Virus record (IMG/VR): IMGVR_UViG_3300010352_001543
DNA: 64,000 nt
Source: a virus
Taxonomy: Duplodnaviria; Caudoviricetes
Strand: one strand, 5' to 3'
Shown: one piece after another, positions 5,568 to 63,575 of the stretch
How the letters are laid out: every line of letters begins with the position of its first letter
Numbering within the stretch: position 1 is the first letter of the stretch
Notes under the pieces: generated by a model
What the model was told of the DNA's origin: nothing
Seen by the model: only the letters and a program-made list of their open reading frames with translations
The model's database searches: none
Position numbers and translations under genes: made by a program

Positions 5568-5978
5568 CTATTTACCCCAACCAACTTTTTCTAACGCCTT
5601 TAAAAAATTTTCTAATGATTTTCTGATCAGTGCTTCATAAGTACCTCCATTAATATCATTCTTATTTAATAATACTATTATATCTTCTAAACATTTTTCT
5701 ATTTCCTTTTTATTAGAAGGTAATTTACATGAACCGTATGTTCTTCCACTAGACATCCAAACTAGAAAAAAACTAGTAGAATTTCCATCTGGGTGATCTC
5801 CTTTGCCTTTATAATTAACTAATCCACCTGTGAAAAACTCAAAGTTATAAACTATAGATCGTTCATCATTATAAATTGTGTAGTCTGCTGATTTTTCTTT
5901 ACCGGTAAAACGGATGGAACCGGTTTTATAAGTTTTTTCTTCATTTAAGAATTCTTCTCTTGTTTTTAAGTGTTTCAT
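5568..5978 (-). CDS. hypothetical protein with capsid-targeting-like leader
   Basis: N-terminus MKHLKTREEFLNEE. Confidence 0.55.
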   Translation of the reverse strand: MKHLKTREEFLNEEKTYKTGSIRFTGKEKSADYTIYNDERSIVYNFEFFTGGLVNYKGKGDHPDGNSTSFFLVWMSSGRTYGSCKLPSNKKEIEKCLEDIIVLLNKNDINGGTYEALIRKSLENFLKALEKVGWGK

Positions 5979-5995
5979 ATTTTTATCTTTTTATG

Positions 5996-6598
5996 TTAAG
6001 CAACATTATCTTGAATATACTTGATCAAACGAGATAAATCCGTGCCCCAATGATCTTCGGGAAATTCTTTAGTTGTTAAATCTTTCCATTTAGGGTTAGC
6101 ATAATCTTTAATTTTAGCACCTTTTGGATACTCTATTATAGCAGGTGAATTTAGACCATCATAATTCAATGAGCCCAAAACAAAAAATCCACCTTTATTG
6201 TTTTTCAAAGCCATACCATCCGTACTGCTTTTACTCCATTTACCGTCGATTTCTCTTTGATAGTAAATACAAGGAACATATACTGGATCACAATGTAGTA
6301 TAAATTCTACATCATCTTTTCTTTTTTTGATTAATTTCCATAAATTGTCTACTTCCGATAGTTCTTCTTCTGTTCTTATAATACTATCGGGTTTGATAGT
6401 TTTTGATTCATTTAAGAATTCTTCTCTTGTTTTTACATGGTTCATAATTTTTACTTTTTTGTTATTAATTTTAATTTCAATATCAGGCAGCATACCATCG
6501 AAATATTCTCTATTAAATTTTTTATATAAGTCTTTAATATCATTGGAAACCGACAGCTTCTCGTTGATGGACTCAATATAGTTATATATAGTTTGCAT
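5996..6598 (-). CDS. CTS-leader protein; SprT-like N-terminal remnant fused to a second leader (alternative start 6445)
   Basis: MQTIYNYIESINE...LYKKFNREYFDGMLP without HExxH, then MNHVKTREEFLNES. Confidence 0.5.
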   Translation of the reverse strand: MQTIYNYIESINEKLSVSNDIKDLYKKFNREYFDGMLPDIEIKINNKKVKIMNHVKTREEFLNESKTIKPDSIIRTEEELSEVDNLWKLIKKRKDDVEFILHCDPVYVPCIYYQREIDGKWSKSSTDGMALKNNKGGFFVLGSLNYDGLNSPAIIEYPKGAKIKDYANPKWKDLTTKEFPEDHWGTDLSRLIKYIQDNVA

Positions 6599-6599
6599 A

Positions 6600-7127
6600 C
6601 TATGAATTTTGTTTCTTTTTACTTCTACCGGCATACTCTTCGATATCCTCTTTAATAGTGTCATAGAAATCTTCTATGTGATCGAAAACAGCAATCAGAT
6701 GTTTACATAAAGCACCTTCTAAGTTTGGATTTTTGATTTCAGGTGGCCTGTCTTCCGGGCGGATTCCATAATCATCAACATCCGCCATATATTGGTAGCC
6801 ATGAAATAAAAAGTCCTGGCAAGAACAATAAACATGAATATCACCAGCCTGTATAGCGGTTTCTATTTTTTCTTTGGTATCATATTTCTTCGATCTACTT
6901 ATTTGCCGGTAGTCAGGAATTCTAACCATTATGTTATGTTCTGTTCCGCTACCATTTGGATCAGTCGCGATAAATTTCAGTGTTTTTATTCTATCGTTTT
7001 TTACACGATGAGCCATTCCAGTATACCTAACTTGGATTTCCTTTGCTCTTGTTTTGCGTTTGCCTTCTGAATTTTTGATTAACTCATGTAGCATTCGCTC
7101 ATCTAATATGTTTGAAAGTATTTTCAT
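6600..7127 (-). CDS. SWIM zinc-finger protein
   Basis: VYCSCQDF...LCKHLIAV. Confidence 0.75.
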   Translation of the reverse strand: MKILSNILDERMLHELIKNSEGKRKTRAKEIQVRYTGMAHRVKNDRIKTLKFIATDPNGSGTEHNIMVRIPDYRQISRSKKYDTKEKIETAIQAGDIHVYCSCQDFLFHGYQYMADVDDYGIRPEDRPPEIKNPNLEGALCKHLIAVFDHIEDFYDTIKEDIEEYAGRSKKKQNS

Positions 7128-7130
7128 ATA

Positions 7131-7973
7131 TTATATATTTAAGTCCGGTTCCGGAAGAAATTGTAAGTCCAGCGCATTTTTAAAATCTTCAAGTATCTGT
7201 TCTTTAAGGCCACCGAACAAATTAAATTTTGGATTATCCAAAACAGCCAACAGCGATTCATATGTTTTAGCATCTTCTATAGTAAAAGTTGGCCCAAGAA
7301 TTATATGAACCAATTCCTCTGGGTCATTAGTGATTATCTCTAAAACTGTTTTGGATGCTGTTTTTCTTATCTGTCCTTTTTTACCAACATATGAATATTT
7401 GGTTTTTTTCAATCCTTTGGAAAGGTCCAGCGCATATCGATCCATCTCTTTTATTTCACCATCTTTGTTATACGCTATAGAAAAAATAAAATTTCTCGCT
7501 ATGGCAATCAAAAGAATATTTCTATAGTAACTTTTGTACTTCGATTCATTTATTCTGTAGTCCGGAGAATAGCTTGCAAATTTTGTCCATTCGATTGAGT
7601 CGGTTAACATCAAATCCACTTGAACAAATTCCTTTTTCGTATAAGGAATAGGAAAAGCAATTGAAACTATATTGAAACCAATTGTCAGTTTCACTTCAAG
7701 ATCAAAAGCATTTTCTAATGCTTCTTTCAAAACATTCAAAACATCTTCATACTTACAATTCAGTACATTACAAAGTGCTTGTTTGTCCACCGCTATGTCA
7801 AGGTCTCCTGAAAGGTCATCAATTCCTGGTTTCTTTCCGGCAGAACCTACTAAAGCGTATTGATTTTTGTTTAGCCCCATAACAAAGAAAAATTGACTTA
7901 CTACAGCATAGTAGGTTTTATCAACTTCGTATTGTTTTATTGGTCGAGTGTATTCAAAAAGATTCCCACCCAT
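7131..7973 (-). CDS. Pol-beta-superfamily nucleotidyltransferase
   Basis: GSAGKK...SGDLDIAV and VQVDLM motifs. Confidence 0.75.
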   Translation of the reverse strand: MGGNLFEYTRPIKQYEVDKTYYAVVSQFFFVMGLNKNQYALVGSAGKKPGIDDLSGDLDIAVDKQALCNVLNCKYEDVLNVLKEALENAFDLEVKLTIGFNIVSIAFPIPYTKKEFVQVDLMLTDSIEWTKFASYSPDYRINESKYKSYYRNILLIAIARNFIFSIAYNKDGEIKEMDRYALDLSKGLKKTKYSYVGKKGQIRKTASKTVLEIITNDPEELVHIILGPTFTIEDAKTYESLLAVLDNPKFNLFGGLKEQILEDFKNALDLQFLPEPDLNI

Positions 7974-8139: not shown

Positions 8140-9066
8140 TTATTTTACAAATACTTTGCCACTTACATGACAAACTGTCCGGACATATTCCTCTGTGAAA
8201 TCTTCTTCATTGTCAGCGCAGTAGTAATTTTTCTTCACTGAAATTGGACCATCTTCTAATGTTTCTAAATAGTTTCCAACACAATAAAAACTTCCATCTA
8301 TCTTTTCGGTTACACCTTTTAAACTTGTTAATTTGTTATTATAACAAGCATAATCACCATCAACAAACAGTGGACCATTCAATATTTCTGTTAATTGATT
8401 ATCTCCGCAATTAAATTCTCCTTTAACTTGTCGCGGAAAATTAGTGGAATATTTTAGATTGTTTTCGCTACAATTGAAATCTCCAGAAATGTAACCAAAT
8501 TGAATAGGTAATGTATCTTCATAGTATCTTTTAATCTTAACATCGCCATGAACATGACAAACACCATTGGTTATCTCAAAAGTTCCTTTAACCCAAGATT
8601 TTATCAATTTAGTTAATGTAACATCTGCTGGTATAAATATCTTAGAAGGGTCTAAATGGTTACTTTTTAAAATCTCTTTTACTCTGCTTGATACATCCCA
8701 GTTGGTATTATCATATCTATATCTACTTTTAGACCAACCATTAGACCCATTAGCATACGCTTTAAACATCCCATTAGCAAAAACAAAAACAGCATAAAAA
8801 TCTGTTATTATTTTTTCTTCTTCTCTATCTACATAATTATTCACTACAATATAGTACTCGGTAGTTTCTAATTGTAAAGGTGAGCTATCTAAATTATAAT
8901 CTTTGAATAAACCACCGAATGTTGTTTTATTATCTATCAAAAATTGTCGAGCTTCGTCTTGTGATGTTGGATGAAAAATAAGCAAAGTGTTAGATTTATA
9001 CACTATTGGAAGATTATTTTTAGTTACAATTAACTCTTCATTTATTATAGTTGAAATAGTTTTCAT
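8140..9066 (-). CDS. leucine-rich-repeat-like protein
   Basis: repeated GxFxCxxNxLxxLxxxP units at the C-terminus; leader MKTISTIINEE. Confidence 0.7.
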   Translation of the reverse strand: MKTISTIINEELIVTKNNLPIVYKSNTLLIFHPTSQDEARQFLIDNKTTFGGLFKDYNLDSSPLQLETTEYYIVVNNYVDREEEKIITDFYAVFVFANGMFKAYANGSNGWSKSRYRYDNTNWDVSSRVKEILKSNHLDPSKIFIPADVTLTKLIKSWVKGTFEITNGVCHVHGDVKIKRYYEDTLPIQFGYISGDFNCSENNLKYSTNFPRQVKGEFNCGDNQLTEILNGPLFVDGDYACYNNKLTSLKGVTEKIDGSFYCVGNYLETLEDGPISVKKNYYCADNEEDFTEEYVRTVCHVSGKVFVK

Positions 9067-9092
9067 TTGTTTAATTTTTATAGTATATATTT

Positions 9093-15700: not shown

Positions 15701-17185
15701 GCTTCCTTTTCCATTTCATATTCAGCTTCAATTTGTTCTGCTGTTTTTCTATTTGCTTTATCAAAAAACAAATATCCTATTGCATCACCTATCCAACTCA
15801 TTATATAATTCCAAAATATTTAAAAATTTGTACTCCTGCATATAAAATGCAGAATATCGGAACTAATTTTCCCATAATCTGACAGAAAATTGTAAAAATA
15901 TTATTTGGTCCTCTTACTTTCAAAAAGAAAATAACCAAAGCTATCACTATTACCGCAAAGTGGTAAATTAATGTTATTGTGTTCATTATCTAAACCTCTA
16001 TATTTCTATTTCTTAAAATCTGACATACGTCCGATGCTTCATTTTTATTACTACATCGGCATATAATATTTTTAGAATTGTAAAAATTATATACTAAAAA
16101 ATATGGTACTTGTTCTTTTAATGTTTTTGTGATTGTGTTATTATGAGAATAATCGACTTTCCAAACGAACGGTAAGTAATCCATATTTGGAAGAGGATTC
16201 TTATCAACATCAATTTTGTGTTCATTTAAGAAAACATAAAGTTTATGAGCTTGCTTTTTATCACCAGAACTATAGATAACCTTTTTAGGGTCATTCCTTT
16301 CACAAATAACATAGGTATGTTCACAATCTTCTTCTGTTCGTATATCATTGTTAAATGTTATCATATCTCTCATTTGATATCGCCACTTCTTAATATCTTC
16401 AATTGTCAAACTTTCATAAGTTTTCTTAGCATCTTCTAATGAGAATTGTTGGTCATTTAGATTATTACAAATTTCATTTGCTTCTTCTTCAGTTTTTCGA
16501 TAACAAATAATGTCCTCATAATTACCTTCTTCTAAAGTCTTGTATGGTAGATACACATACCACGGAACGTCTGATCGTACTACAGATTTTGCAACAAGAT
16601 ATTCCAGTGTTTTATCTACGGTTGGTCTAATTCCACAATTCCACTCATACATCCGAACAAGATATTCAATTTTCTCTTCGGTCGTCATTTTATCTAATTC
16701 TTTCCGTTTCATTTTACCGCTTGTTCTTTTCTATTATTTGTTTTTCTAATTGTAATATTAATTGGTTAATTACCATATTATGAGTATCAATTCCAAACTG
16801 AGCATTAACATCCAATATTTGTTCCAATGAAACTTGCATCGTTGCTTTTACTCCTTTTTCTTCCAGCGAAAGGGTCATTACTCTGCTTCGTGGTAGAAGT
16901 CTATCAATGCTGGTATCCGGTTGACCTATAAATAAAATATGACTATCTTTTAACTCGATTGGTTTATCATTATTGAACCCAACTACAATTTGAAACCATT
17001 TGTAGCCTGATTCTGAACTATAAGTTCTAACCAATGATTCTGGATCTAATTGGTTCAATCCCATTATTTTATTAGTTACGTCATTATAGATTATTTCAAA
17101 GGCTAATCTATCTTTACCTGTTAAATCTTCACATACTGTCATTATAGAATGTCCGTATTTAATTTTAAAATATTTTGTTATTTAA

Positions 17186-17605: not shown

Positions 17606-18190
17606 CTAAACCATCTTTTGGATCTGTTCAAATTCATCATCATAATCACTGAACCAGTCGGCCACCTGAGAAATCAAATCTTTTAAGTTTTCTTTCCATT
17701 TTTGGATTATGTCAGCTATTCCTTCGTCGACAGTATCTTTCTTGACTGAAGATAGTTTGGAAACGGTTCTAACTGTTGTTGTACATTCCTCTATCAACTC
17801 ATCCGCTATTTTCTTGAGCTTAGGAGTTAATTTTTCATAGATAGCTTTGAACAATTTTTCATAGTTCACTTTTTTAGATTCTGATTCAGCGCTGAAGGTC
17901 ACTGCAAATTCCTCCAGTTGTATCACCCGTGTCATGAATTCATCACCAACATCAAAAAAGTCAGTTCCTAATTTTTTCACTTCTGCTTTCAGTGGTTCCT
18001 GTTCTTTGGTGAACTTTTTGATTTTTATATCAAGTTCATAGAACTCGGAAATTAGTTTTTTCATTTCCCTTGTCTGCTTGTTTGACTTTTGAAAAGAGGC
18101 AAACAACTTCTTAGTTGTTTCCGTGTATTTTATTAACTTGTTATCCAATCGGGATTCATTTATAAATTCACAAAATTTTAATACTTTCAT
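17606..18190 (-). CDS. coiled-coil protein with CTS-like leader
   Basis: MKVLKFCEFINES. Confidence 0.5.
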   Translation of the reverse strand: MKVLKFCEFINESRLDNKLIKYTETTKKLFASFQKSNKQTREMKKLISEFYELDIKIKKFTKEQEPLKAEVKKLGTDFFDVGDEFMTRVIQLEEFAVTFSAESESKKVNYEKLFKAIYEKLTPKLKKIADELIEECTTTVRTVSKLSSVKKDTVDEGIADIIQKWKENLKDLISQVADWFSDYDDEFEQIQKMV

Positions 18191-18192: not shown

Positions 18193-18696
18193 TTATTTAT
18201 TATTTTTAAACTTAATATCTTTAAAATTACTTACCAACAATTCATATAAACCGTTGAAATTTTCCTCATAGTCAATATCAAAATGTTCTTCCCACCAGTT
18301 TTCACTAAAATCTGATATTTCGTCTTCTGATTGGTTTTCATATAAATTTACAACGATAATATATTTATGTAATTGTTTAATATCTTTAAAAACCTGTTCC
18401 TCCATTTCATCCCGAACTTTCCTGCCATTTAATGAAGTTCCGGAGTAATCGTATTGGAAAGGTTCGATTTTATAGTTATTAGACAACTTATCACCATCTA
18501 TTTCTAAACGAACCGGATACTCGGAAGCTATTGTTTTTATAGCATTTTTATCTCTTGTAAATGAAATCGTTCCATGATTATACGATACTTTTAGGATATC
18601 GCTTTCTAATATTTTTAGAAGGTTATCAATTGTAGTATGATGATACAATACTCCAACTTGTTTATTCTCATTTATAAAATCAGCTAAGGATTTCAT
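18193..18696 (-). CDS. putative ADP-ribosyltransferase-fold protein with CTS-like leader
   Basis: LYHHT..NL.KIL, ISFTR, EMEE; leader MKSLADFINE. Confidence 0.5.
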   Translation of the reverse strand: MKSLADFINENKQVGVLYHHTTIDNLLKILESDILKVSYNHGTISFTRDKNAIKTIASEYPVRLEIDGDKLSNNYKIEPFQYDYSGTSLNGRKVRDEMEEQVFKDIKQLHKYIIVVNLYENQSEDEISDFSENWWEEHFDIDYEENFNGLYELLVSNFKDIKFKNNK

Positions 18697-18918
18697 TTTT
18701 TTATTTATTATTTTTTACAAGGCGTTTAGCACCCTTAACTTCTTCTTTTAGAAATTCATATGCTTCTTTGTAATCCTGAGATCCCATCAACTCGGCATAA
18801 CTCCATACCATTTGAGACAGAATGCTCTTAGAGCAACTGTCTATTAAAACTGCCATTTTTTGCTGATAAACCTCTTGTTCATCATCTGCTTCGTTTAAGT
18901 ATTCCATCTTTCTTTCTA

Positions 18919-19823: not shown

Positions 19824-20276
19824 TTATTTGAGTAATTTTTCTATTGCTTGTTTTTCTTTCTTGGAAACTTCTACTACTATTTCCAGGCAACCCAGTTCTT
19901 CCATTGCTTTTGTTCGGTGACGACCATCAGAATATGAAATTCCGTCTTTACCTTTGAGATCTATCAAAGGAGCTTCCAACAACCAATCTTTTTTATCTTG
20001 TTTTGGAAGATTAACTATTCGGCTTACAAAATCAATGTATCCCTGTATTCTCCCGCCTAACGACATGTTTCTATCAACTACAAATTCTGGATCTGTCTCC
20101 GCGTGAATATGAAGCAAATTTTTAACATTAACAATAATGAAACAATCGTTTGAATGTCTAAGTTTAAAATTTTTCAAGTCCAGTAGATAATCTCTGATCA
20201 ATTGAGTATCAGTGGACGGTTCTATTTCTTTTAAGTACACTTCGTTTAGAAACTCCTTAAATTTTAAAACATTCAT
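19824..20276 (-). CDS. ParB/Srx-like domain protein with CTS-like leader
   Basis: P.I...SDGRHRTKA; start MNVLKFKEFLNE. Confidence 0.6.
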   Translation of the reverse strand: MNVLKFKEFLNEVYLKEIEPSTDTQLIRDYLLDLKNFKLRHSNDCFIIVNVKNLLHIHAETDPEFVVDRNMSLGGRIQGYIDFVSRIVNLPKQDKKDWLLEAPLIDLKGKDGISYSDGRHRTKAMEELGCLEIVVEVSKKEKQAIEKLLK

Positions 20277-20292: not shown

Positions 20293-20688
20293 TTATATAT
20301 TCGCTTTAGCCGCTTCAACTATTTCTTGAATTGTCTTCTTGTCTTTTAGTAATTCTTTGATTCCGAAATCCTTTGCAAACGCTCTCATGATTTTTTTCTC
20401 GTTCGGTCTTTTTACATCATCTTCGTTTTCATAAATATCAACATCAAAAATATAATTTATGTTCTTGTCGATCATGATTTGAACTATGTATTTAATATAT
20501 TCAAAATAAATTTGCTTTTGATTATTATGGACCAATTCAGGTTTATTAATAAATTCAAAAGGATCTGCTATTACCGCTTCCGGGTAGATTCCTTGAAGCA
20601 TTTTCTTGGCTGATTTAAATTTCTTTTCATTTAAAATCCGGGTCGATTCAATATGTCCTATCAATTGTATTCTTTTTTGTTCTTTCAT
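20293..20688 (-). CDS. DUF4406/nucleoside deoxyribosyltransferase-like protein
   Basis: IQLIGHI...F..A...L....ADP...E...A...GI pattern. Confidence 0.35.
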   Translation of the reverse strand: MKEQKRIQLIGHIESTRILNEKKFKSAKKMLQGIYPEAVIADPFEFINKPELVHNNQKQIYFEYIKYIVQIMIDKNINYIFDVDIYENEDDVKRPNEKKIMRAFAKDFGIKELLKDKKTIQEIVEAAKANI

Positions 20689-42624: not shown

Positions 42625-42654
42625 TAAAGACGTTACAATTGAAATTTTATTGTA
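42625..42654 (-). promoter_or_regulatory. promoter TACAAT-N16-CGTC, back-to-back with tnpB cassette 2
   Basis: motif copy. Confidence 0.7.
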
Positions 42655-44143: not shown

Positions 44144-44675
44144 GTTTTAATCGACTCATAATTTTTACCTATAATTTCCAGCCATCTTTTATGGCTTCTT
44201 GTTTTGTTCGATATCCTGAAATTTTAGAAACATAAGTTAAGTCCAATTCAAAATAAGCATAGAAATAAATATCATCACCATCCGGATAAATTCGACTTAA
44301 TATTATAGGAGCACCTTCTGCCACATTGATAGTATATCCTCCTATATTATCATTAATTTTTCCACCAAAATTAAATTGGTTGAATTCAGTAACATAAGGA
44401 GTTCGAGGACCTCTGTGATTATCAAAACTTTTAGAATCTTTTGCTAAAATCAATACTTTTTCATAGTTAGATTCAAGTGAAATGGAAACATCTTTTTTAG
44501 TATTTCCTCTTGGTATCATGTATAAACCTGGATGGTGATGAGTTGATATAGTGTGTTTGAAAATCTGATAAATATCCCCTTGATAAACAACTAACATCCC
44601 TTCTTTGAAGCTGTCCAAAATATTATGTTCGTTCCGTTCAAACAATTTAATACGCTCACTGAATTTTTTCATAAT

Positions 44676-45416
44676 TTATTTATAGCAAGCGGCTCCTTCA
44701 TCACCATAAATCCAAACTACTGTTTCCGAGTTGTTTTTACATGCTATTAGTTCTATTGAAACCAATTCATCATAATCCAACTCATCCAAATATTCTTCAA
44801 CAGTACCGGTATCATATCTTTTTATGCGATTAAAATTATTTCCGGTTTCTTTTGCTATAACAACCCAAGGTTTATCTCCATAGTCCATTGCTATCATTTC
44901 TGGTTTAACGTCTTTGAAAGGAATAAGTTTACCCCAATCATTAGATTCATTTAAACTACTATAACTGTTTGATTTTTTGCTTTCATTTACACCACCGAAT
45001 AGATTATTAAACCAATCCTCGTAAACATCCAATCCCCATTCAATACAAGGTTTCCCTTTAAAATAACCACTTAAATTATTAGTATTAAAATTAGCGGCTG
45101 GTTTTGTTAAATTTTTACCGGTGAATATTATAAGAGTATCATATTCAGGTTTTTTACTGCCTGTGGGTTTATGCCCTTGTGCCATTATAGTATGACCATT
45201 TGATAAAACTATAGTATATTCATAATCTTCTTCACCTTCAGTTACTTCAGCTTTTATGCTTTCGATTGTTATATCAACCGGTTTCGGTACAGCATGAAAT
45301 TTATATTTTTTCAATCTACTTATAACTGCAGATTCGGTTGTTTTATCGTCTTCCCATTTGACATCAAAAGAAGATTCATTTAAAGCAAATTCATTGAATT
45401 TTTTTGTTCTTTGCAT
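44676..45416 (-). CDS. two-domain CTS-leader protein with internal NES-type linker
   Basis: MQRTKKFNEFALNES; internal VNESKKSNSYSSLNES. Confidence 0.5.
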   Translation of the reverse strand: MQRTKKFNEFALNESSFDVKWEDDKTTESAVISRLKKYKFHAVPKPVDITIESIKAEVTEGEEDYEYTIVLSNGHTIMAQGHKPTGSKKPEYDTLIIFTGKNLTKPAANFNTNNLSGYFKGKPCIEWGLDVYEDWFNNLFGGVNESKKSNSYSSLNESNDWGKLIPFKDVKPEMIAMDYGDKPWVVIAKETGNNFNRIKRYDTGTVEEYLDELDYDELVSIELIACKNNSETVVWIYGDEGAACYK

Positions 45417-46730: not shown

Positions 46731-47108
46731 TTAATTTAGTTGATTAACTGAGAGAGTTTTGTATCTGGAATTTTTTCCATAATAAACTCCTCCTAACATT
46801 TTTTTGTAATCTTCTGGTGTCCAAAATTCATCTTCATAAGAACCCCAAACGTATTTTACATCTTGATCTTTAATGTATTTTTGATCACTTTTAGAACCAT
46901 GTGCAGTTAAATTATAACTTCTTTTTGTTACTGTTGCTTGGCCATCATTAGTGAAAAATATATCCACACCATCTTTTGTATTTCTATACTTTCTAACGAA
47001 TTCTTCCGGTGTGCCGGTGAAATCATACACTTTTTCTTCGCCCCAAGTTATTCTTTGGTGTTCTTCATTTAACTGATTAAATTCATTGTAACTTTTAACG
47101 TTATTCAT
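46731..47108 (-). CDS. CTS-leader hypothetical protein
   Basis: MNNVKSYNEFNQLNEE. Confidence 0.5.
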   Translation of the reverse strand: MNNVKSYNEFNQLNEEHQRITWGEEKVYDFTGTPEEFVRKYRNTKDGVDIFFTNDGQATVTKRSYNLTAHGSKSDQKYIKDQDVKYVWGSYEDEFWTPEDYKKMLGGVYYGKNSRYKTLSVNQLN

Positions 47109-47148
47109 AATTCTTGCTTTTTTTGTTGTAACATTTATTTTATATATT

Positions 47149-49988: not shown

Positions 49989-50558
49989 TTATATACTATA
50001 TATTTCTGTTTTATTTTTGATATGATTATAAACATGTTTTCTCGCTCGATAGATATGGACAGAAACAGATCCGACAGGAACATCAGTAATTAATGATATT
50101 TCATTGTAACTGAAATTATCCATTTCTCTTAGTAAGTATGATTCCAAATAAATTTCAGGTATTCCTTGTATAGCTTCTTCTATAGATTTACTAATTAGAT
50201 GCTGGTCAAAAAGAATTTCCTGTTCAAATATTCGGTCATCTATCTCTTCAATATATTCGGTAGCTACTGGACGTTTTTGTCTGAATTTATTAAATATATC
50301 ATTCCGGGCAATTCTTAATAGGTAAGCATAAACATTATTAATTTCTTTATTGTCTGAAATGGAGGAATAAAAATTGATAAATGTTTGTTGAAAGGTATCT
50401 TCAACATCCTGCTTATTTTTCAATAAGTATGAAATATATCGAAGCACCTTACTGGAGTACCTATTATATAACTCAGTGAATGCCTTTTCGGATACTGTTT
50501 TATTTTTTGAAAGTAGTAATCTATAAAGTTCTATGTCAGATTTTTGTTTGATTTCTAT
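49989..50558 (-). CDS. ECF (group IV) RNA polymerase sigma factor; probable ATA start at 50558
   Basis: SDIEL..L...EKAFTELYNRY, EDTFQQTF, YLLRIARN, LREMDNFSYNEIS...GSVSVHIYRAR. Confidence 0.88.
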   Translation of the reverse strand: MEIKQKSDIELYRLLLSKNKTVSEKAFTELYNRYSSKVLRYISYLLKNKQDVEDTFQQTFINFYSSISDNKEINNVYAYLLRIARNDIFNKFRQKRPVATEYIEEIDDRIFEQEILFDQHLISKSIEEAIQGIPEIYLESYLLREMDNFSYNEISLITDVPVGSVSVHIYRARKHVYNHIKNKTEIYSI

Positions 50559-50854: not shown

Positions 50855-51157
50855 CTATCGTGATTCATTCATAAATTCTTCAAATTTCATGACTCTGGAT
50901 TCATTTTGTTTTGTTTTGCCTATGTCGGTTGCTTTTGTTTTCAAATGTTGGACATTATCCGCTTTGGTGAAGTCGATAGAATCCATCACTTTATCCGGAA
51001 GATTTTTAGTTTTAATAGAAGCAAAATCTTCAAGGTCTTTTAAAGACATCGAATCTGCTAATTCTTTTACTTCGGTTGAGGCATCAACGGTCTCTCCTCT
51101 TTTGTATGCTAAGGCCATTCCCATGATTGCTTGTTGTGCTTTTGATTTTGCTGGCAT
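50855..51157 (-). CDS. DUF3008-like protein; frame stays open about 70 codons past its TAG
   Basis: MPAKSKAQQ..MG.ALA.KRGE...SMS..DLEDFA; ends MKFEEFMNESR*. Confidence 0.75.
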   Translation of the reverse strand: MPAKSKAQQAIMGMALAYKRGETVDASTEVKELADSMSLKDLEDFASIKTKNLPDKVMDSIDFTKADNVQHLKTKATDIGKTKQNESRVMKFEEFMNESR

Positions 51158-52225: not shown

Positions 52226-52302
52226 TGGCGGAACCATCGGGATTCGAACCCGAGATCTCTTGATAGACAGTCAAGCGCTTTAACCAACTAAGCTATGATT
52301 CC
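52226..52302 (-). tRNA. tRNA-Asp(GTC), CCA encoded
   Basis: cloverleaf, loop CTGTCTA. Confidence 0.92.
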
Positions 52303-52307
52303 ATTTC

Positions 52308-52382
52308 GGTGGATTATAAAGGACTTGAACCTTCACCTTCGGTATGCAAAACCGATATGCTCCCAATTAACACTAATAACCC
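52308..52382 (-). tRNA. tRNA-Ala(TGC)
   Basis: G3-U70 pair, loop TTTGCAT. Confidence 0.9.
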
Positions 52383-52389
52383 GTTCTTG

Positions 52390-52462
52390 TACGTCTAAGC
52401 AGGATCGAACTGCTACCAATGGATTGAAGGTCCATTAAACTATCCATTTATTCTATAGACGC
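52390..52462 (-). tRNA. tRNA-Glu(TTC), atypical C33
   Basis: stem ATGGA/TCCAT, loop CCTTCAA. Confidence 0.7.
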
Positions 52463-52469
52463 ATAATTG

Positions 52470-52541
52470 AGACATCGGTGAGAATCGCACTCACATAAAC
52501 GGTTTTGCAGACCGCTACCTAAACTATTCGGACACGATGTC
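52470..52541 (-). tRNA. tRNA-Cys(GCA)
   Basis: loop CTGCAAA, U73. Confidence 0.88.
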
Positions 52542-52553
52542 GTTGCTGTTTTG

Positions 52554-52627
52554 TGCCTTGACGTGGTAACGCTCCACGCTCTTCGGTGTTTCAAACCGAT
52601 GCTTTCTACTTGATTAGCTTTCAAGGC
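52554..52627 (-). tRNA. tRNA-Phe(GAA)
   Basis: loop TTGAAAC; atypical T-loop. Confidence 0.8.
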
Positions 52628-52635
52628 ATTTCTTG

Positions 52636-52708
<73 letters not shown>

Positions 52709-52715
52709 AATTTTG

Positions 52716-52790
52716 TGAAAATAGAAGGATTTGAACCTTCGACCATCTGCGTGTAAAACAGATGCTCTATACCAACTGAGCTATATTTTC
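52716..52790 (-). tRNA. tRNA-Val(TAC)
   Basis: loop TTTACAC. Confidence 0.92.
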
Positions 52791-52795
52791 ATCTG

Positions 52796-52869
52796 TGGAC
52801 CCTGTTGGGATTGAACCAACGATTTCTGAGTTATGAGCTCAGTACTTTTACCAACTAAGTTAAAGGTCC
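52796..52869 (-). tRNA. tRNA-Ile2/Met(CAT)
   Basis: loop CTCATAA; GGACCTT acceptor resembles Ile2. Confidence 0.85.
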
Positions 52870-52877
52870 ATTACTTG

Positions 52878-52951
52878 CACTGATAGTTAGATTCGAACTA
52901 ACATTTATCAAATTAGAAGTTTGATGCTCTATCCAGTTGAGCTATATCAGC
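52878..52951 (-). tRNA. tRNA-Arg(TCT)
   Basis: loop CTTCTAA. Confidence 0.92.
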
Positions 52952-52960
52952 GTTGTTTTG

Positions 52961-53033
52961 TAGCGGACCCGGAACCTGCCTCCGGAACTACAGCTTATGA
53001 GACTGTCGAGATAACTAATTTCTCTAATCCGCT
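52961..53033 (-). tRNA. tRNA-Met(CAT), initiator-like, atypical T-loop
   Basis: AGCGGAT acceptor, loop CTCATAA, T-loop GGCAGGT. Confidence 0.7.
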
Positions 53034-53040
53034 ATTTTTG

Positions 53041-53112
53041 CACGTCGAGCAGGTCTCGAACCTGAACCCGTGGGTTTGGAATCCACTACTCTACCAATTG
53101 AGCTATCGACGT
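53041..53112 (-). tRNA. tRNA-Trp(CCA)
   Basis: loop TTCCAAA. Confidence 0.88.
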
Positions 53113-53120
53113 ATATCTTG

Positions 53121-53194
53121 AGCGCCTACCCGGGGTTGAACCGAGACATTTTGGTTGGAAGCCAAACATGCTAATCCATTAACATCATAGGCGC
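53121..53194 (-). tRNA. tRNA-Gly(TCC)
   Basis: GCG acceptor, U73, loop CTTCCAA. Confidence 0.9.
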
Positions 53195-53200
53195 GTTTTG

Positions 53201-53283
53201 CAGAAGCAACCGGATTTGAACCGATACATCCTTTCGGACAACTCATTAGCGGTGAGTAGCAATACCAATTATGCGATGCTTCT
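53201..53283 (-). tRNA. tRNA-Ser(GCT), C33
   Basis: long variable arm, loop CCGCTAA. Confidence 0.85.
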
Positions 53284-53287
53284 ATCG

Positions 53288-53361
53288 GGTAATTAATGAG
53301 GAACGATCTCATACTTTCAGCTTCACAGGCTGGGGTGCTAACCAATTACACCATAATTACC
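53288..53361 (-). tRNA. tRNA-His(GTG)
   Basis: G-1/C73, loop CTGTGAA. Confidence 0.88.
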
Positions 53362-53373
53362 GTGTTTAAAAAA

Positions 53374-53409
53374 TGCACCAAATATTCTATCCAGTTGAGC
53401 TAATGGTGC
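53374..53409 (-). pseudogene. internally deleted tRNA-Arg-like remnant
   Basis: GCACCATTAGCTCAACTGGATAGAATA joined directly to TTTGGTGCA. Confidence 0.7.
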
Positions 53410-53423
53410 GTTTTTTATTATTG

Positions 53424-53495
53424 AGCTCACAAAAGGAATCGAACCCTTATCTGAAGATTACAAGTCATCTGTTCTACCAATTGAACTATGCGAGC
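53424..53495 (-). tRNA. tRNA-Thr(TGT)
   Basis: loop CTTGTAA. Confidence 0.9.
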
Positions 53496-53498
53496 ATT

Positions 53499-53575
53499 TG
53501 GTTGTCTATCAAGGATTTGAACCTAAATCTTTGCTGTATCAGAGCAACATTCTAACCGGATTGAACTAATAGACA
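53499..53575 (-). tRNA. tRNA-Ile(GAT), CCA encoded
   Basis: loop CTGATAC. Confidence 0.88.
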
Positions 53576-53585
53576 ATATTATATG

Positions 53586-53670
53586 TGTCAGAGGTGGGCA
53601 TCGAACCCACATGGAATTTCTTCCACGGGTTTTTAAGACCCGTGCGTACTACCAATTTCGCCACTCCGAC
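53586..53670 (-). tRNA. tRNA-Leu(TAA)
   Basis: long variable arm, loop CTTAAAA. Confidence 0.92.
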
Positions 53671-53678
53671 ATTTTAAG

Positions 53679-53752
53679 TAATCACGCTAAGATTTGAACT
53701 TAGACTTTATGACTTTTGAAATCATCGCCACTGCCAATTGGGCTACGTGATC
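53679..53752 (-). tRNA. tRNA-Leu(CAA), short variable loop
   Basis: loop TTCAAAA; variable region AAAGT only. Confidence 0.8.
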
Positions 53753-53760
53753 ATTTGAAG

Positions 53761-54576
53761 TAACCCTACTTGGATTTGAACCAAGACTTTTTATATCAAA
53801 TCTAAAAACCCTTCACTGGAAAACCATCTTCTTTTAAATTCTTTGTGATTTATCCGTGTAACATTATATCCAATATCCTTTAAATAATTATCTCTTATCT
53901 TATCTTTTTCTATCGTCTTTTCATGTTGATTACCATCTAATTCTATTATTAATTTTTTATCTTCAAATGTATAATCTGCGAATATGTTCTTTTTATCTTT
54001 CTCATTATAAAAATGTCTATTATACTGATATTCAATTTTATTAGATATCAAATATTTTTCAAAATTTTCTTCCATCCACGATCTCTTATGACTTCCGTAT
54101 ATCTTATGATTTTCTGGATTTTTTAGCCATTCTGTTCTTGCTTTTGAAATTTTAGACCTTCTTATTAATTCTTTCTCTGTAGTAGAAGCTCGACCAGTTG
54201 GAGCTTTAGTTATTCCATTTTTCATATTTAATGAGCTATTAATAGAGTTTCTTTTGATTCTTTCATCTGTGTACTTTGTCAATCCTTTAGACCAACCTCT
54301 TTTAGCAAGATCATCAACAGACATTTCATCTTTTCTCTTCTGGACAATTCTACCATCATTGTAGCATTTTTTAACACCTTCACTATTCTTTTTTCTATTT
54401 GTCGGACAACTATTATAAGATTTAGAGCAACACCATTTTCCACTTTTAGATTGATATATTGCTTCTTGTCCACATCCATACTCACATAATTGAATTTCAT
54501 CCATAATACACTATAATATTTTTAATAATATAGTATATATTTGAGACTGTCTCCTCTGCCGTTGGGATATAGGGTC
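53761..54576 (-). pseudogene. tRNA-Leu(CAA) split at the anticodon loop by an endonuclease gene (5' half 54541-54576, 3' half 53761-53790)
   Basis: GACCCTA...ACAGT-CTCAAA | insert | AAAGT-CTTGG-TTCAAAT-CCAAG-TAGGGTTA; acceptor strands complementary. Confidence 0.8.
53791..54504 (-). mobile_element. free-standing homing endonuclease (CEYGCG Zn motif, NUMOD3-like, DUF559/Vsr-like nuclease)
   Basis: WSKGLTK; ADY...IIELDGNQH...DKIRD.YL...GY.V.RI. Confidence 0.8.
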
Positions 54577-54584
54577 ATTTTACA

Positions 54585-54667
54585 GGTGCCGTTTTATGGA
54601 ATTGAACCATACTGTACTAAGTACAAAAGTTTTACAGACTTCGTCGCCACCTTGGCTGTTAAACGGC
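54585..54667 (-). tRNA. tRNA-Tyr(GTA)
   Basis: long variable arm, loop CTGTAAA; atypical D-arm. Confidence 0.8.
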
Positions 54668-54675
54668 TTTTTATT

Positions 54676-54751
54676 TGGCTCATCGGGTAGGACTCGAACC
54701 TACAATCGCCGCGTTAACAGCGCGGTACTCTACCAATTGAGTTACCGATGA
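54676..54751 (-). tRNA. tRNA-Asn(GTT), CCA encoded
   Basis: loop CTGTTAA. Confidence 0.93.
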
Positions 54752-54762
54752 ATTTTAATCTG

Positions 54763-54835
54763 CTGCCGGTGAATGATTTGAACATTCATAAACGGCTTCA
54801 AAGGCCGTTGTCTTAACCAGTTGGACGAACCGACA
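54763..54835 (-). tRNA. tRNA-Gln(TTG)
   Basis: loop CTTTGAA. Confidence 0.88.
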
Positions 54836-54869
54836 GTATTTTATTTTCTAATTTTCAAAGGACTAAGGC

Positions 54870-54944
54870 GGTCAGTGCGCAGCGACTTGAACGCTGACTC
54901 CTGGCTCCCAAAACCAGTGGATTAACCAATTTTCCTACGCACTG
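54870..54944 (-). tRNA. tRNA-Pro(TGG), first tRNA of the operon
   Basis: loop TTTGGGA. Confidence 0.88.
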
Positions 54945-55310: not shown

Positions 55311-55628
55311 TTATTTTTTAGGAGCGTAATCTTCATCTGATAACACATATCCTTCTCTTTCAAGCTCCTTGATAATCTTTTTTATCATTGTAGATCTAAA
55401 CGAAGGTCTTGTGGCTACATCTTTGGACCAAACACCTTTCCTATAAATAATTTCATAGTTTGTATTATTTCCGTTAAAATATGAAGTAATAAAAGCGTAT
55501 TTACCTTCATCGTTTTTATAAAGAGAATAACCTTCAGCACTGTTCTTAATATCAGTTTCCGTAATTCCCTCATTTAACTTATTTTCATTCAAAAAGAATT
55601 CTTCTCTTGTTAATACATGCTTATTCAT
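55311..55628 (-). CDS. CTS-leader hypothetical protein
   Basis: MNKHVLTREEFFLNENKLNEG. Confidence 0.55.
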   Translation of the reverse strand: MNKHVLTREEFFLNENKLNEGITETDIKNSAEGYSLYKNDEGKYAFITSYFNGNNTNYEIIYRKGVWSKDVATRPSFRSTMIKKIIKELEREGYVLSDEDYAPKK

Positions 55629-55660: not shown

Positions 55661-55689
55661 TAAAGACGAAGCAATTTAATTTTTATTGT
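55661..55689 (-). promoter_or_regulatory. promoter ACAAT-N16-CGTC
   Basis: motif copy. Confidence 0.65.
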
Positions 55690-56104
55690 CGTATAGTTTT
55701 GACAATTTCGGTATTTTGCTGTCTTCTACAAATATTTTAAATGTTTCATCATTTATTAAAGATTCATATACTTCTACGTACTTGTCCTGAGCTTTAGGAA
55801 AAAAGTGCGATTTCAGCATCACAGTAATCACCTTAAAAATCCATTCCTTTCCTTTCCGGACCAATGCTCCAACAATGTTTAAATTTGATTTCAATCCATG
55901 AATTACAAATGTTTTAGCACCTTGTAAATTCTTTGTTAGGATGTTTGCTGATTTTCTAACAAGTTCTTCAATGTCTTCCCTTTTGATGTTTATAGGCAAC
56001 CCATTCCGCTCTCTGGAACGATCCATTGCATGAGTTGTCAGAAGAACATCAATTTCGTGTTGTTCTTCGTTTAGTAAAAGGGACCAGTCAAAGTAAATTT
56101 TCAT
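55676..56104 (-). CDS. DUF4258/RelE-like fold protein, possible RNase, CTS-like leader
   Basis: TTHAMDRSRER...I...VITV; LLLNEE. Confidence 0.45.
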   Translation of the reverse strand: MKIYFDWSLLLNEEQHEIDVLLTTHAMDRSRERNGLPINIKREDIEELVRKSANILTKNLQGAKTFVIHGLKSNLNIVGALVRKGKEWIFKVITVMLKSHFFPKAQDKYVEVYESLINDETFKIFVEDSKIPKLSKLYDNKN

Positions 56105-56587: not shown

Positions 56588-56878
56588 TTATTCAGATTTT
56601 TTCTGAACAACTTTTAGTTCTTTTATATAATCACTACCATCGCCATCCCAGCCAAATGTTTTTTCATAGTCACTGTCATTCGGATCAACAACAATCGAAA
56701 ATGAATGCCCTATATTTCCAATCTGTGCAATATACTCTATCAATTCTTTTAGTTGATTTTCTGTATCTCTACAGTAAATGATATACTGGTCACAATCAGA
56801 ATTATTTAGACCTTCATTTAATTTTGATTCATTTACAAAAGATGTAAATGTTTTTACATGTTTTAAATTTTTTTCCAT
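56588..56878 (-). CDS. CTS-leader hypothetical protein
   Basis: MEKNLKHVKTFTSFVNESKLNEG. Confidence 0.55.
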   Translation of the reverse strand: MEKNLKHVKTFTSFVNESKLNEGLNNSDCDQYIIYCRDTENQLKELIEYIAQIGNIGHSFSIVVDPNDSDYEKTFGWDGDGSDYIKELKVVQKKSE

Positions 56879-58348: not shown

Positions 58349-59092
58349 TTAACTTTTCACTTTAACAATATTAGAGCATATTCCACTCTTTGATGCATTA
58401 ACAATAGTTTGTGCTGCTGCCCCTGACACAGGTAATTTAGCATCTATCATTTTTGCTAAATTTCCAATCATATCCATAAGTGGTCCACATTTTGCCAGTG
58501 GTTCAGTACATGTTTCAGCTCCTAAATTTATGTCATCACAATCTATACTCCATTTATCATCGGCATGTTCTAACACTTTTCCATCCACCATTTCGATATA
58601 TGATGTTTTCCCTGAATGATAAATTTTAACATGTGTATCCTTATCAATATTAATTATTGACTCTTTGTGAAACAATAACAAACCTTGTTTTTGCGTGTAG
58701 AAAATACGGACCTGTTCATCTACATCCATTATCAGTACCTGACTATTAATATAGTCATCTTTGATCAACGTTTGCATTTCTGGATTCATTATTTCAACTT
58801 CTTTGTATTGTGGAGAATATAAATCTCCACCAGCAAATTGAACTGTTACTAATGTGTTTAATTTTGGAAACGAAAACGAACCAAAACCTCCACCTCCACC
58901 ATCTGCATTTTCAGCTGTCTTAGCAAAAATAGTAGATCTCATAGGGAACGCCCACGGCAAATTAGCAGGTTCAATATCATCAAACTTACTGAATATTTTT
59001 ATCTTGCAGCGTCCTAAATAGAGTGGATCTTTATTATCAACTACTACACCTAAAAAGGTACCTTCTAAATCTTCTGTCTTAAAATCTGTCAT
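58349..59092 (-). CDS. T4 gp5-like baseplate hub/spike protein (OB fold)
   Basis: GVVVDNKDPLYLGRCKIKI...LPWA.P...P.LNTLV.V.F..GD. Confidence 0.85.
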   Translation of the reverse strand: MTDFKTEDLEGTFLGVVVDNKDPLYLGRCKIKIFSKFDDIEPANLPWAFPMRSTIFAKTAENADGGGGGFGSFSFPKLNTLVTVQFAGGDLYSPQYKEVEIMNPEMQTLIKDDYINSQVLIMDVDEQVRIFYTQKQGLLLFHKESIINIDKDTHVKIYHSGKTSYIEMVDGKVLEHADDKWSIDCDDINLGAETCTEPLAKCGPLMDMIGNLAKMIDAKLPVSGAAAQTIVNASKSGICSNIVKVKS

Positions 59093-59110
59093 TATATACT
59101 ATATATTCTC

Positions 59111-61201: not shown

Positions 61202-61215
61202 TATTGTTTTTATTT

Positions 61216-62616
61216 TTACTCAAAGTTTGGATGAGTCCATTCTCGTCTGCTTAGAACAACTTCTTGTTGAATTATATTATCTGAGGATGGTCGTAATGGA
61301 TCAATTGTGTTTTTATAAATTAAATTAATAGCCCTTATTATATAATTACCGGACAAAAATCTATCAACAGAGAAGCCTATATTTTTAGCGTCATCCGCTT
61401 TCCAACCGGATATATTAACACGTTGCTCATTGTTAATATTTACAATTATTATAGGAACCCGTTGGCCACTATAATAATTTAAATTTGTTCTTGACAACAA
61501 CGCTTTGAATTTTATCTTATTAATATTTTCGTTATTTATTCGGTTTTGATAAGCAGCTTCTTTATAGAACTCATGAATGTTATGATCCGGCAACAAATAG
61601 TTCCATCCTGACCATGTCTTCTTTATTTCGTTTTTATAAATGTCTTCATTTGGCCGACCTTTCAATGCTATCTTTTTCGTCTTGGAGTTAGTCACTGTTG
61701 ACTCAATATTAAAATTTACGTGCTTCTGTGTAGTGAAATCAAAAATATTTAAGTTCTTGATGTAACCGTCTTTCATTGCACTTGCTCCCGACTGGTTGAA
61801 CAGCTCATGTTTTTCTATGAAATTTCCACCGTTCTTTAGTTCCGGTAGATTAGATAGTATATTCTTGTTCTTAATATAGTCAATTTGTTCGGTAGCGATG
61901 GTGTCCTTAGTAAAAAGAGAGAAGTCAATACCGGTGGAAGTATCAGCAGAGTCTGCAATAGAAAACATTGAATTCATTTCTACAAAGTTTAAGTTGTAAT
62001 AATGGTCAAACCAAAAACTGAAAAAACTATACTCATTAGAATATGAATGGGACACTACTGATTTAATAAATTCTAAGTATGTTTGATTTGGACTAAGCCA
62101 GGTCATAGTATCTTTTAAATCAGTATCTGTAACATTGGTGACAAAACCAAGTCCTAAATCATTAGCAACTTCAATTAGCGTCTGTAGTGTATTCATCGAA
62201 GGAAATGCTTTGTTAAAACTTGCATAAAGCTTTGGTATCCACATTTCACCATAGACAGTAATACTCATAGTGTCTCCGGATGGTCCGGTACTCCTACTGG
62301 TAGTAACATGAGTAATTCTAAAATCGACCCTGACTGGTTTTAAATCCTTGACAAGTGAACGAATGAAAACAGAAAGCATATCTCCATCTTTAGGAAAATG
62401 CTTTGAAATGAAAACACCATCGTTAATATTAAAAGTACAATTCGCTTTTGGGAGAATGTCTTCATTATTGATTTCAAGGTACCTTATTTGCTTTTGGGAA
62501 ATAGAATAGCCATTGATTTCAATGACCGGGTATCTACTACCTCGTCCACCAACAATGTAACCAATCGTTTGGTCTTTCTTGGAATTGCTAATTATTTCTG
62601 AGCCATTATCTGCCAT
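61216..62616 (-). CDS. putative baseplate hub (gp27/late-control-D-like) protein
   Basis: position upstream of gp5-like gene; L.EVA.DLGLGF, FWFDHYYNLNFV, LSGNYII. Confidence 0.55.
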   Translation of the reverse strand: MADNGSEIISNSKKDQTIGYIVGGRGSRYPVIEINGYSISQKQIRYLEINNEDILPKANCTFNINDGVFISKHFPKDGDMLSVFIRSLVKDLKPVRVDFRITHVTTSRSTGPSGDTMSITVYGEMWIPKLYASFNKAFPSMNTLQTLIEVANDLGLGFVTNVTDTDLKDTMTWLSPNQTYLEFIKSVVSHSYSNEYSFFSFWFDHYYNLNFVEMNSMFSIADSADTSTGIDFSLFTKDTIATEQIDYIKNKNILSNLPELKNGGNFIEKHELFNQSGASAMKDGYIKNLNIFDFTTQKHVNFNIESTVTNSKTKKIALKGRPNEDIYKNEIKKTWSGWNYLLPDHNIHEFYKEAAYQNRINNENINKIKFKALLSRTNLNYYSGQRVPIIIVNINNEQRVNISGWKADDAKNIGFSVDRFLSGNYIIRAINLIYKNTIDPLRPSSDNIIQQEVVLSRREWTHPNFE

Positions 62617-62820
62617 TTAATATCTTATAAATATATTTTTTGTAGAAACTTCTTGGAGAAAAATGGTTCTCCGTTATCTGTTTTAATTTCGGATAATGAT
62701 TTTACAAATTCTTTTCTTTCTTGTTTTCTTTTTGATTCATCTGCGTTCATTAATGATACTATTTTCGTGAATTCTGTTCTATTCATTTTTAATTCCTTTT
62801 AACGGTGTACATTTATTTTA

Positions 62821-63153
62821 TTAATTCTTAAAAAATTTTTGATTTTTCTTTATTTCTTGTTCTGTTAGCAAAGTTTGTTTAACTTCATTGGAACCTATAA
62901 TTTCTAATTTATAGATTTCCTCTGTGTTTGGATTTCCTAAATATTGTATGAACACTATTTTTTTATCTATCCATCCAAGAGCAGCAACATCTAAATTAAG
63001 ATGAAAATATTTGTTTAATGCTTTCTCTAAATCATCATTATTTTCATCTATTATAGATTGATAAATATTTTTATCTTTTATCGTCATTTCTGAATTTTTA
63101 TAAGGTATGTCTGACTCTAATAAAAATTCACTATATGTTTTTATATTTTTCAT
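62821..63153 (-). CDS. CTS-leader hypothetical protein
   Basis: MKNIKTYSEFLLES. Confidence 0.55.
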   Translation of the reverse strand: MKNIKTYSEFLLESDIPYKNSEMTIKDKNIYQSIIDENNDDLEKALNKYFHLNLDVAALGWIDKKIVFIQYLGNPNTEEIYKLEIIGSNEVKQTLLTEQEIKKNQKFFKN

Positions 63154-63575
63154 TAATGTAGCTCATTTATTTTATAAAGCGTGGTTGAAATAAGTTCAAC
63201 CATTTCATCTATAATTGTTTCTAAGTCTGTTTGATCGGTATAGCCAATTCTGTAATTACTTAAATCATCTTTTAGTTCGGTTAAATGCTCATTCATGTTT
63301 ATCGGTTCAGAAGAAGGAATAGTAATTTCTACTTTACCGAATGTGCCTTGATATGCTTCAGCAAATCTATCAGTTAGGTCAAGAATACCATCATAATATT
63401 CATTTAATGCTTTGTGTTCAGCATAGCTTTCAGTTGCTAAGTGATTTAGATGGGCAATGTCTCTGCTTTGAAAAAGTTTACCAATCATATAACCATCCAT
63501 ATTATCCTCTAAGAGACCTGAACCGATTTCTTCATTTAAGAAATCACCGAATTTTTTAACGTATATTTTTTTCAT
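63153..63575 (-). CDS. ferritin/Dps-like (DUF5856-like) protein with CTS-like leader
   Basis: HLNH...YAEHKAL.EYYD...D.FAE.YQG; KKFGDFLNEE. Confidence 0.7.
   Translation of the reverse strand: MKKIYVKKFGDFLNEEIGSGLLEDNMDGYMIGKLFQSRDIAHLNHLATESYAEHKALNEYYDGILDLTDRFAEAYQGTFGKVEITIPSSEPINMNEHLTELKDDLSNYRIGYTDQTDLETIIDEMVELISTTLYKINELH

Follow-up and report, generated by a model that had tools for sequence, protein, structure and literature searches.

Why would about twenty unrelated open reading frames (ORFs) on one stretch of phage DNA begin with nearly the same ten residues? The question is raised by a 64,000-nucleotide stretch (hereafter the window) of the IMG/VR virus record IMGVR_UViG_3300010352_001543 (Duplodnaviria; Caudoviricetes), in which a first-pass annotation had read the N-termini of 20 ORFs as a leader resembling that of the phage T4 internal proteins, and the ORFs themselves as head-packaged, co-injected effectors. 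The shared N-terminal leader is confirmed as a real feature of many ORFs, and, at the level of sequence, its likeness to the T4 capsid targeting sequence (CTS) holds up well. By analogy with T4, we consider it probable that the leader is this lineage's version of the CTS and loads a large cargo of injected proteins.

All 20 listed starts are ATG codons on the minus strand and translate to the N-termini quoted for them; we refer to leader genes by these start positions. Leaders were scored with a ten-column matrix trained solely on 15 leaders of the window. Fourteen have the T4 spacing and are strong, with matrix scores of 15-27 (5978, 6445, 9066, 18190, 18696, 19818, 20276, 42595, 46055, 55628, 56104, 56878, 63153 and 63575). 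Four more (34451, 45416, 47108 and 49970) are spaced variants with one or two extra residues, in which the aromatics and the L-N-E end are retained. The count of about 20 is thus to be amended at 44672, which is weak, and at 6598, which is probably no separate gene, and three leaders that had been overlooked are to be added: 7127 (MKILSNILDE, score 17.7), 5440 (MQKLSILNE) and 18907 (MEYLNE). The consensus of the leaders is K-x-[FY]-x-x-F-[LIV]-N-E, and the catalogue, with lengths in amino acids (aa) and distances in nucleotides (nt), is as follows.

4958-5440, minus strand: weak short leader MQKLSILNE, 160 aa
5568-5978, minus strand: leader gene MKHLKTREEFLNE, 136 aa, score 24.8, without a Pfam or PHROG match
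5996-6445, minus strand: leader gene MNHVKTREEFLNE, 149 aa, score 26.6
6600-7127, minus strand: leader gene MKILSNILDE, 175 aa, ATATATA motif 12 nt upstream
8140-9066, minus strand: leader gene MKTISTIINE, 308 aa, four 21-residue LRR-like repeats in the C-terminal half
17606-18190, minus strand: leader gene MKVLKFCEFINE, 194 aa, score 22.5
18193-18696, minus strand: leader gene MKSLADFINE, 167 aa, hints of a Tpt1/DarT-like ADP-ribosyltransferase fold
18701-18907, minus strand: minimal leader MEYLNE, 68 aa
18919-19818, minus strand: leader gene MSRIFNFSEFVIE, 299 aa, predicted R-S-ExE ADP-ribosyltransferase with a C-terminal helical domain
19824-20276, minus strand: leader gene MNVLKFKEFLNE, 150 aa, predicted ParB/sulfiredoxin-like fold from residue 22
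34035-34451, minus strand: spaced-variant leader MIPKFKDYQKLNE, 138 aa, ATATATA motif 28-30 nt upstream
42119-42595, minus strand: leader gene MQPLKHIKTYSNFLNE, 158 aa, score 25.2
44169-44672, minus strand: doubtful leader MKKFSERIKLFERNE, 167 aa, under the matrix threshold
44676-45416, minus strand: spaced-variant leader MQRTKKFNEFALNE, 246 aa
45468-46055, minus strand: leader gene MIKILSDVLNE, 195 aa, score 20.2
46731-47108, minus strand: spaced-variant leader MNNVKSYNEFNQLNE, 125 aa
49530-49970, minus strand: spaced-variant leader MARKYDDYQTTQLNE, 146 aa
55311-55628, minus strand: leader gene MNKHVLTREEFFLNE, then a second KLNE, 105 aa, score 16.6
55676-56104, minus strand: leader gene MKIYFDWSLLLNE, 142 aa, weak match to DUF4258 (toxin-like RNase)
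56588-56878, minus strand: leader gene MEKNLKHVKTFTSFVNE, then a second KLNE, 96 aa, score 22.5
62821-63153, minus strand: leader gene MKNIKTYSEFLLE, closest to T4 MKTYQEFIAE, 110 aa, score 23.0
63153-63575, minus strand: leader gene MKKIYVKKFGDFLNE on a DUF5856 domain, 140 aa

The motif is enriched at N-termini: in 20 of 121 genes an [ILVF]NE motif ends no later than residue 24, as against 4.9 expected from the motif's interior density (Poisson P=2e-7). Substituting D, Q, K, N, S or T for E in this test gave no enrichment, so that Glu alone is enriched. Furthermore, none of the plus-strand ATG frames of at least 30 aa reached a matrix score of 10, and neither the small genes at 1-4900 nor the block of 24 small genes immediately below the window carry a single leader; these leaderless blocks argue that the motif is not a general trait of small AT-rich genes. 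The proteins behind the leaders were said to be unrelated, and all-against-all BLASTP bears this out, with similarity confined to the leader. Synonymous codons at P4-P1 (positions are counted back from the invariant Glu, P1) track genome usage, with six codons for Leu, AAT/AAC at 14:5 for Asn and GAA/GAG at 17:5 for Glu, which indicates that selection works on the protein.

Several observations concern the arrangement of individual leaders. The leaders of 5978 and 6445 share 27 identical nucleotides. Position 6598 is the start of a 51-codon SprT-like fragment (recognised by eye) that runs in frame into the 6445 leader, the frame being open to 6598/6664, and this in-frame fusion suggests insertion of cassettes at leaders. 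The SprT-like fragment (window 6446-6664, minus strand) bears a YIESINE motif of its own. In the proteins of 55311-55628 and 56588-56878 a second K-L-N-E-G lies five residues after the leader and is possibly a second cleavage site. Finally, a 100-aa DUF3008 ORF (50855-51157, minus strand) carries the leader-like VMKFEEFMNESR (matrix score 13.9) right before its stop codon, which may be what is left of a tagged gene that was lost, or else a site of processing at the C-terminus.

How close is the leader to the T4 sequence? T4 IPII and IPIII do begin MKTYQEFIAE, as we verified in NC_000866. Run on all T4 genes, the window matrix returned exactly three proteins, IPII, IPIII and gp61.1, where 0.06 were expected. 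We know of no evidence that gp61.1 is packaged. This 54-aa protein (T4 gene 61.1, NC_000866 18966-19130) starts MKTFKEFIKED and outscores both IPII and IPIII with the window matrix. In the first 400 kb of the uncultured 462-kb phage LR756500.1, the nearest phage record, the same matrix found 20 N-termini as against 0.43 expected. It found none in Tenacibaculum phage PTm1, a distant relative that has an S77 protease and lacks the leader family, and which served as a composition control.

The residues that are conserved are those that matter in T4. The first 10 residues of IPIII are enough for loading, and mutagenesis assigned targeting to residues 4 and 7 and processing to residues 8 and 10, with Asp at position 10 blocking processing (PMC9026906, section 2.6). 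The conserved positions of the window leaders are the same four, and both systems have an aromatic residue at P7, Phe at P4, Ile, Leu or Val at P3 and Glu at P1; 12 leaders satisfy the pattern at positions 4, 7, 8 and 10 with exact spacing. Two differences stand out: P2, which is Ala in T4, shows a strong preference for Asn, and about 20 genes in 64 kb carry the tag, as against four or five in T4.

Evidence on how the leader might be processed comes from the head modules of relatives. An S77 (gp21-type) protease is present in LR756500.1, in PTm1 and in the contigs L054, L058 (294 kb) and L059, and the latter three share the gene order portal, S77 protease with a long C-terminal part, capsid gene. 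The LR756500.1 capsid protein used as a query matched 3,228 gp23-like proteins, and nearly all of the best 120 of these 3,228 have the N-terminus M-x(0-5)-[LFIMV]-[IVL]-N-E. Across the C-terminal parts of these three protease fusions there are 16 hNE sites where 4.2 are expected (P=9e-6), and RVNE followed by S or A lies just past the protease domain in all three fusions and in the LR756500.1 protease. Between protease and capsid gene, L054 has small genes with the full leader (e.g. MKHVKLFEDFLN, MIKDFQSFLHE and MHIKLFEDFNKEE) and L058 has a leader gene ending MKHIKLFEEFVNE; the gene directly after the capsid gene bears a leader in L054, L058 and L059, starting MKRVKSFDEFVNE in L059. Taken together, the capsid N-termini, the hNE-rich protease parts and the leader genes of the head module are consistent with cleavage at hNE by the protease of this clade, and the location of the tagged genes would place the leader of relatives on prohead-core genes.

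Some leader genes also follow a promoter-like motif. [AT]ATATATA occurs 12-40 nt upstream of eight leader genes, and the looser [AT]ATATA[TA]A is found at a distance of 5-50 nt ahead of 7 of 22 leader genes as against 5 of 88 others (Fisher P=0.002). Sites of the motif in the window are as follows.

63600-63607, minus strand: [AT]ATATATA promoter-like motif, 32 nt before leader gene 63575
49997-50004, 47141-47148, 42618-42625 and 34474-34481, minus strand: further [AT]ATATATA sites before leader genes
20294-20301, 9084-9091 and 7132-7139, minus strand: further [AT]ATATATA sites before leader genes
59100-59107, minus strand: [AT]ATATATA, 15 nt before the gp5-like baseplate hub gene (58349-59092)

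The motif also stands upstream of the portal and protease genes in L054, L058, L059 and LR756500.1, of the capsid gene in L058 and LR756500.1, and of the gene after it in L054, L058 and L059. From this distribution we infer that ATATATA may be the clade's late promoter, the counterpart of T4's TATAAATA.

What does the tag carry? It sits about 10-30 residues ahead of unrelated folded domains, and the best-supported of these is an enzyme. The annotation's proposal of an ADP-ribosyltransferase is upheld for 19818, which has the R, SWT and ExE motifs and matches to the ADP-ribosyltransferase fold; across 25 homologues R66 never varies, and S102, W103, E171 and E173 hardly do. Its structural model (pLDDT 88.8) leaves residues 1-20 floppy, with low pLDDT, outside the folded domain, and the top 12 VIA matches of the model are all ADP-ribosyltransferases (Z 6.6-8.0 over 125-143 residues); Foldseek alone gave no significant match for it. 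The assignment of 19818 as an R-S-ExE ADP-ribosyltransferase has good support. Homology to T4 Alt was not detected with hhalign (probability 1.5%, with the ExE region alone aligning), and many of the 36 homologues of 19818 have short leaders ending [LI]-x-E, as T4 Alt does (MMELITELFDE). For 20276, the ParB-like claim likewise stands, with a ParB_N cluster by features (0.94) and by structure (TM 0.60/0.58), and there is good support for a ParB/sulfiredoxin (Srx)-like protein from residue 22.

The other assignments are weaker. For 18696, PF01885 matches at E=0.075; in Atlas the protein falls into a Tpt1 cluster by target (TM 0.70) and a DarT/PARP cluster by features, weakly suggesting a Tpt1/DarT-like ADP-ribosyltransferase fold. 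The protein 63575 clearly belongs to DUF5856 (PF19174, E=1.3e-19), and its Dps/ferritin likeness is weak, the Dps matches being faint and consistent; its T4 homologue, by alignment, is rI.-1. Of its 73 homologues, most open with the domain itself and lack the leader; four have an N-terminus that scores as a leader and some five others resemble one. The LRR-like reading of 9066 is a weak one based on the four 21-residue repeats. Also weak is the RNase-like reading of 56104, where DUF4258 matches below threshold (E=0.1) over the whole profile and the single-sequence model (pLDDT 55) is too poor to use. The remaining leader proteins match no recognised family in Pfam or PHROGs. Sub-threshold matches of leader proteins to PLC-beta_C, Uricase and Rpc34 were disregarded, and PDB sequence searches with 19818, 9066 and 63575 returned nothing useful. 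Finally, no homologue of any leader protein turned up in LR756500.1, which suggests that the set turns over fast.

The analogy with T4, together with the gene context in relatives, is the basis on which we propose packaging, cleavage and injection. An ATATATA-type promoter would drive the leader genes together with the head genes, and the aromatics at P7 and P4 would dock the precursor onto the prohead scaffolding core. Once the shell is assembled, a gp21-type (S77) prohead protease would cut after the invariant Glu and free the mature cargo inside the head, which would exit with the DNA at infection. Being modular, the same tag on ADP-ribosyltransferase, ParB/Srx-like, Dps-like DUF5856 and LRR-like proteins and on many unknowns would make for a large injected cargo. 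The docking step, the cleavage, the packaging and the injection are all inferred, as is what the cargo proteins do.

Several points weigh against this proposal. Neither an S77 protease nor a capsid gene belonging to this phage was found in the window, the 21 kb above it or the 6.5 kb below it. The T4 gp23 cleavage site, Glu65, has no counterpart in the alignment of the clade's capsid proteins. The mature parts of the tagged proteins are mostly acidic (median pI 5.4), whereas T4 internal proteins are basic and coat DNA. In the TREEF group, comprising three strong leaders, P7 is Arg or Glu and thus non-hydrophobic. Finally, dozens of cargo species would contest the space in one head. As to candidates that were set aside, three capsid proteins on long contigs, considered as this phage's own, belong to other phages, and an internal LNE near residue 45 of the clade capsid protein was dropped as the Glu65 equivalent, that site having no counterpart in the alignment.

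Could the tagged proteins instead be parts of the prohead core or scaffold, cut and then degraded or expelled, with a role in head assembly rather than as injected effectors? This is the fate of T4 gp22, gp67 and gp68 during maturation, and the leader genes of relatives occupy the very place that gp67, gp68 and gp22 have in T4, the gap between protease and capsid gene; some window proteins are, in addition, small, helical and of unknown function. However, there are enzyme-like folds among the cargos, namely the ADP-ribosyltransferase with its intact R-S-ExE motif and the ParB/Srx fold, the leader genes of the window are scattered over accessory islands far from head genes, and the lack of LR756500.1 homologues is unexpected for assembly parts. 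On balance we regard a pure assembly role as unlikely.

We are similarly doubtful that the tag is a propeptide removed by a protease, or a signal to some other place or partner, that masks toxic enzymes without any packaging into the capsid. What the evidence directly covers is the sequence motif and the Glu requirement, and a toxic ADP-ribosyltransferase or nuclease could well need masking. Yet the same tag is proven by experiment to load T4 heads (PMC9026906), relatives carry it on head-module genes, and the leader, a short stretch, falls outside the folded domain in the model of the ADP-ribosyltransferase, making masking of the active site unlikely. A likeness at the level of nucleotides (a translation start context or a recombination handle), or a recent duplication of one gene family, would account for the 27 identical nucleotides of 5978 and 6445, and the gene fragment fused in frame at 6445 means that leaders may double as recombination joints. 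This explanation is nevertheless very improbable: the Leu, Asn, Glu and Phe codons of the leaders vary as they do genome-wide, the peptide motif persists in genomes of 24%, 30%, 32% and 40% G+C, and the protein bodies differ in fold. A CTS-like tag therefore remains the reading that we favour.

The phage itself is a distant relative of T4. The window has a G+C content of about 30%, and its minus strand holds nearly all genes. Together with its flanks it carries a T4-type set comprising gp32, UvsW, gp41, gp46/47, RNA ligases 1 and 2 and polynucleotide kinase, as well as the gp5-like baseplate hub (58349-59092), a virion structural gene, and 18 tRNAs. UvsW is about 35% identical to that of LR756500.1, with T4-like phages next at 33%. 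Among contigs that carry a window protein, the longest measures 280,711 bp. BLASTP against T4 matched only seven genes of the window and flanks, the DUF5856 protein being the sole leader gene among them, and IMG/VR scans that took the 696-aa structural protein or UvsW as query yielded zero relatives. Two phage proteins (47516-48910 and 10042-11283, both minus strand) end in Por_Secre_tail, the sorting domain of type IX secretion, and Shine-Dalgarno sites are absent at start codons; jointly these traits point to a Bacteroidota host.

Other features of the neighbourhood were noted in passing. The array of 18 tRNA genes (52226-54944, minus strand) is broken by a DUF559 endonuclease-like ORF (53791-54504). 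Two long paralogous plus-strand ORFs (34593-35852, 419 aa, and 42724-43791, 355 aa), about 41% identical to an LR756500.1 ORF, are probably genes of mobile elements. A 142-aa ORF (16714-17142, minus strand) is about 40% identical over 60 residues to the T4-type portals of L054 and L058; the segment matched is internal (portal residues ~174-233), and the ORF may be a portal fragment or paralogue amid accessory genes. Directly upstream of leader gene 49970 lies a 152-aa protein with sigma-70 region 2 and region 4 (49989-50447, minus strand), a candidate phage sigma factor. A gene of the Tad3 anti-defence family PF25185 (L028 5263-5877), about 15 kb past the window end, adjoins gp46/gp47.

How does the system compare with those already known? 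T4 likewise has a short N-terminal tag on unrelated proteins, which the gp21 prohead protease removes from IPII and IPIII as well as from IPI and Alt, and, like one cargo here, Alt is an ADP-ribosyltransferase. The window leader proteins do not look like homologues of IPI-IPIII: their mature parts are mostly acidic enzymes or unknowns, whereas T4 internal proteins are basic and bind DNA. Two further differences from T4 are the probable Bacteroidota host and the capsid protein of the clade, which shares only about 22% identity with gp23. CTS-like leaders in other T-even phages sit on a few basic proteins of close T4 relatives, whereas here they are found on many genes of a distant uncultured jumbo phage. 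A further parallel is offered by the inner-body and ejection proteins of phiKZ, 201phi2-1 and SPN3US, which also have large genomes. Propeptides of the phiKZ type are long and dissimilar, and we know of no common short portable tag among them. By these descriptions the window leaders are set apart: like the T4 tag, they form a conserved block some 10 residues long. In phiKZ, 201phi2-1 and SPN3US many head-internal proteins are cut after the Glu of a three-residue motif and ejected into the host, their propeptides being removed by a diverged gp21-like protease (PMC5694885, PMC10052503, PMC9026906 Fig. 3). It has already been proposed that T4-like phages rely on a conserved tag to package varying sets of proteins that counter defences (PMC3012670 section 6; PMC9026906 section 3.1).

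The mechanism, as far as the analogy carries, is thus the known T4 CTS system, greatly expanded here. What is new is its scale (about 20 genes in 64 kb), the preference for Asn at P2, a cargo that is acidic and enzyme-like, and the occurrence in distant uncultured jumbo phages; a full-text literature search found no report of CTS-like leaders on dozens of genes in such phages. More tentatively, it is possible that an uncultured T4-related clade, including phages of 200-460 kb, loads dozens of fast-changing enzymes by means of one conserved tag. In that case one could predict, from sequence alone, which proteins thousands of uncultured phages inject, and counter-defence and takeover factors, e.g. 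ADP-ribosyltransferases and ParB/Srx-like enzymes, would probably be well represented among them. A further possible role of the tag is as a recombination joint for the swapping of cargo cassettes.

Proteins that enter with the phage DNA act ahead of any phage gene expression, which puts them first among candidates for factors that block host defences. For T4, just a few injected proteins are known, and these were identified by biochemistry. The conserved tag would allow candidate injected effectors to be listed from sequence only in distant uncultured jumbo phages, and it would offer a route, tested in T4, both to check such effectors and to load foreign proteins into the heads of other phages. 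If the analogy with T4 holds, the size of the tagged set suggests that protein injection may weigh far more in the infection strategy of this lineage than it does in T4.

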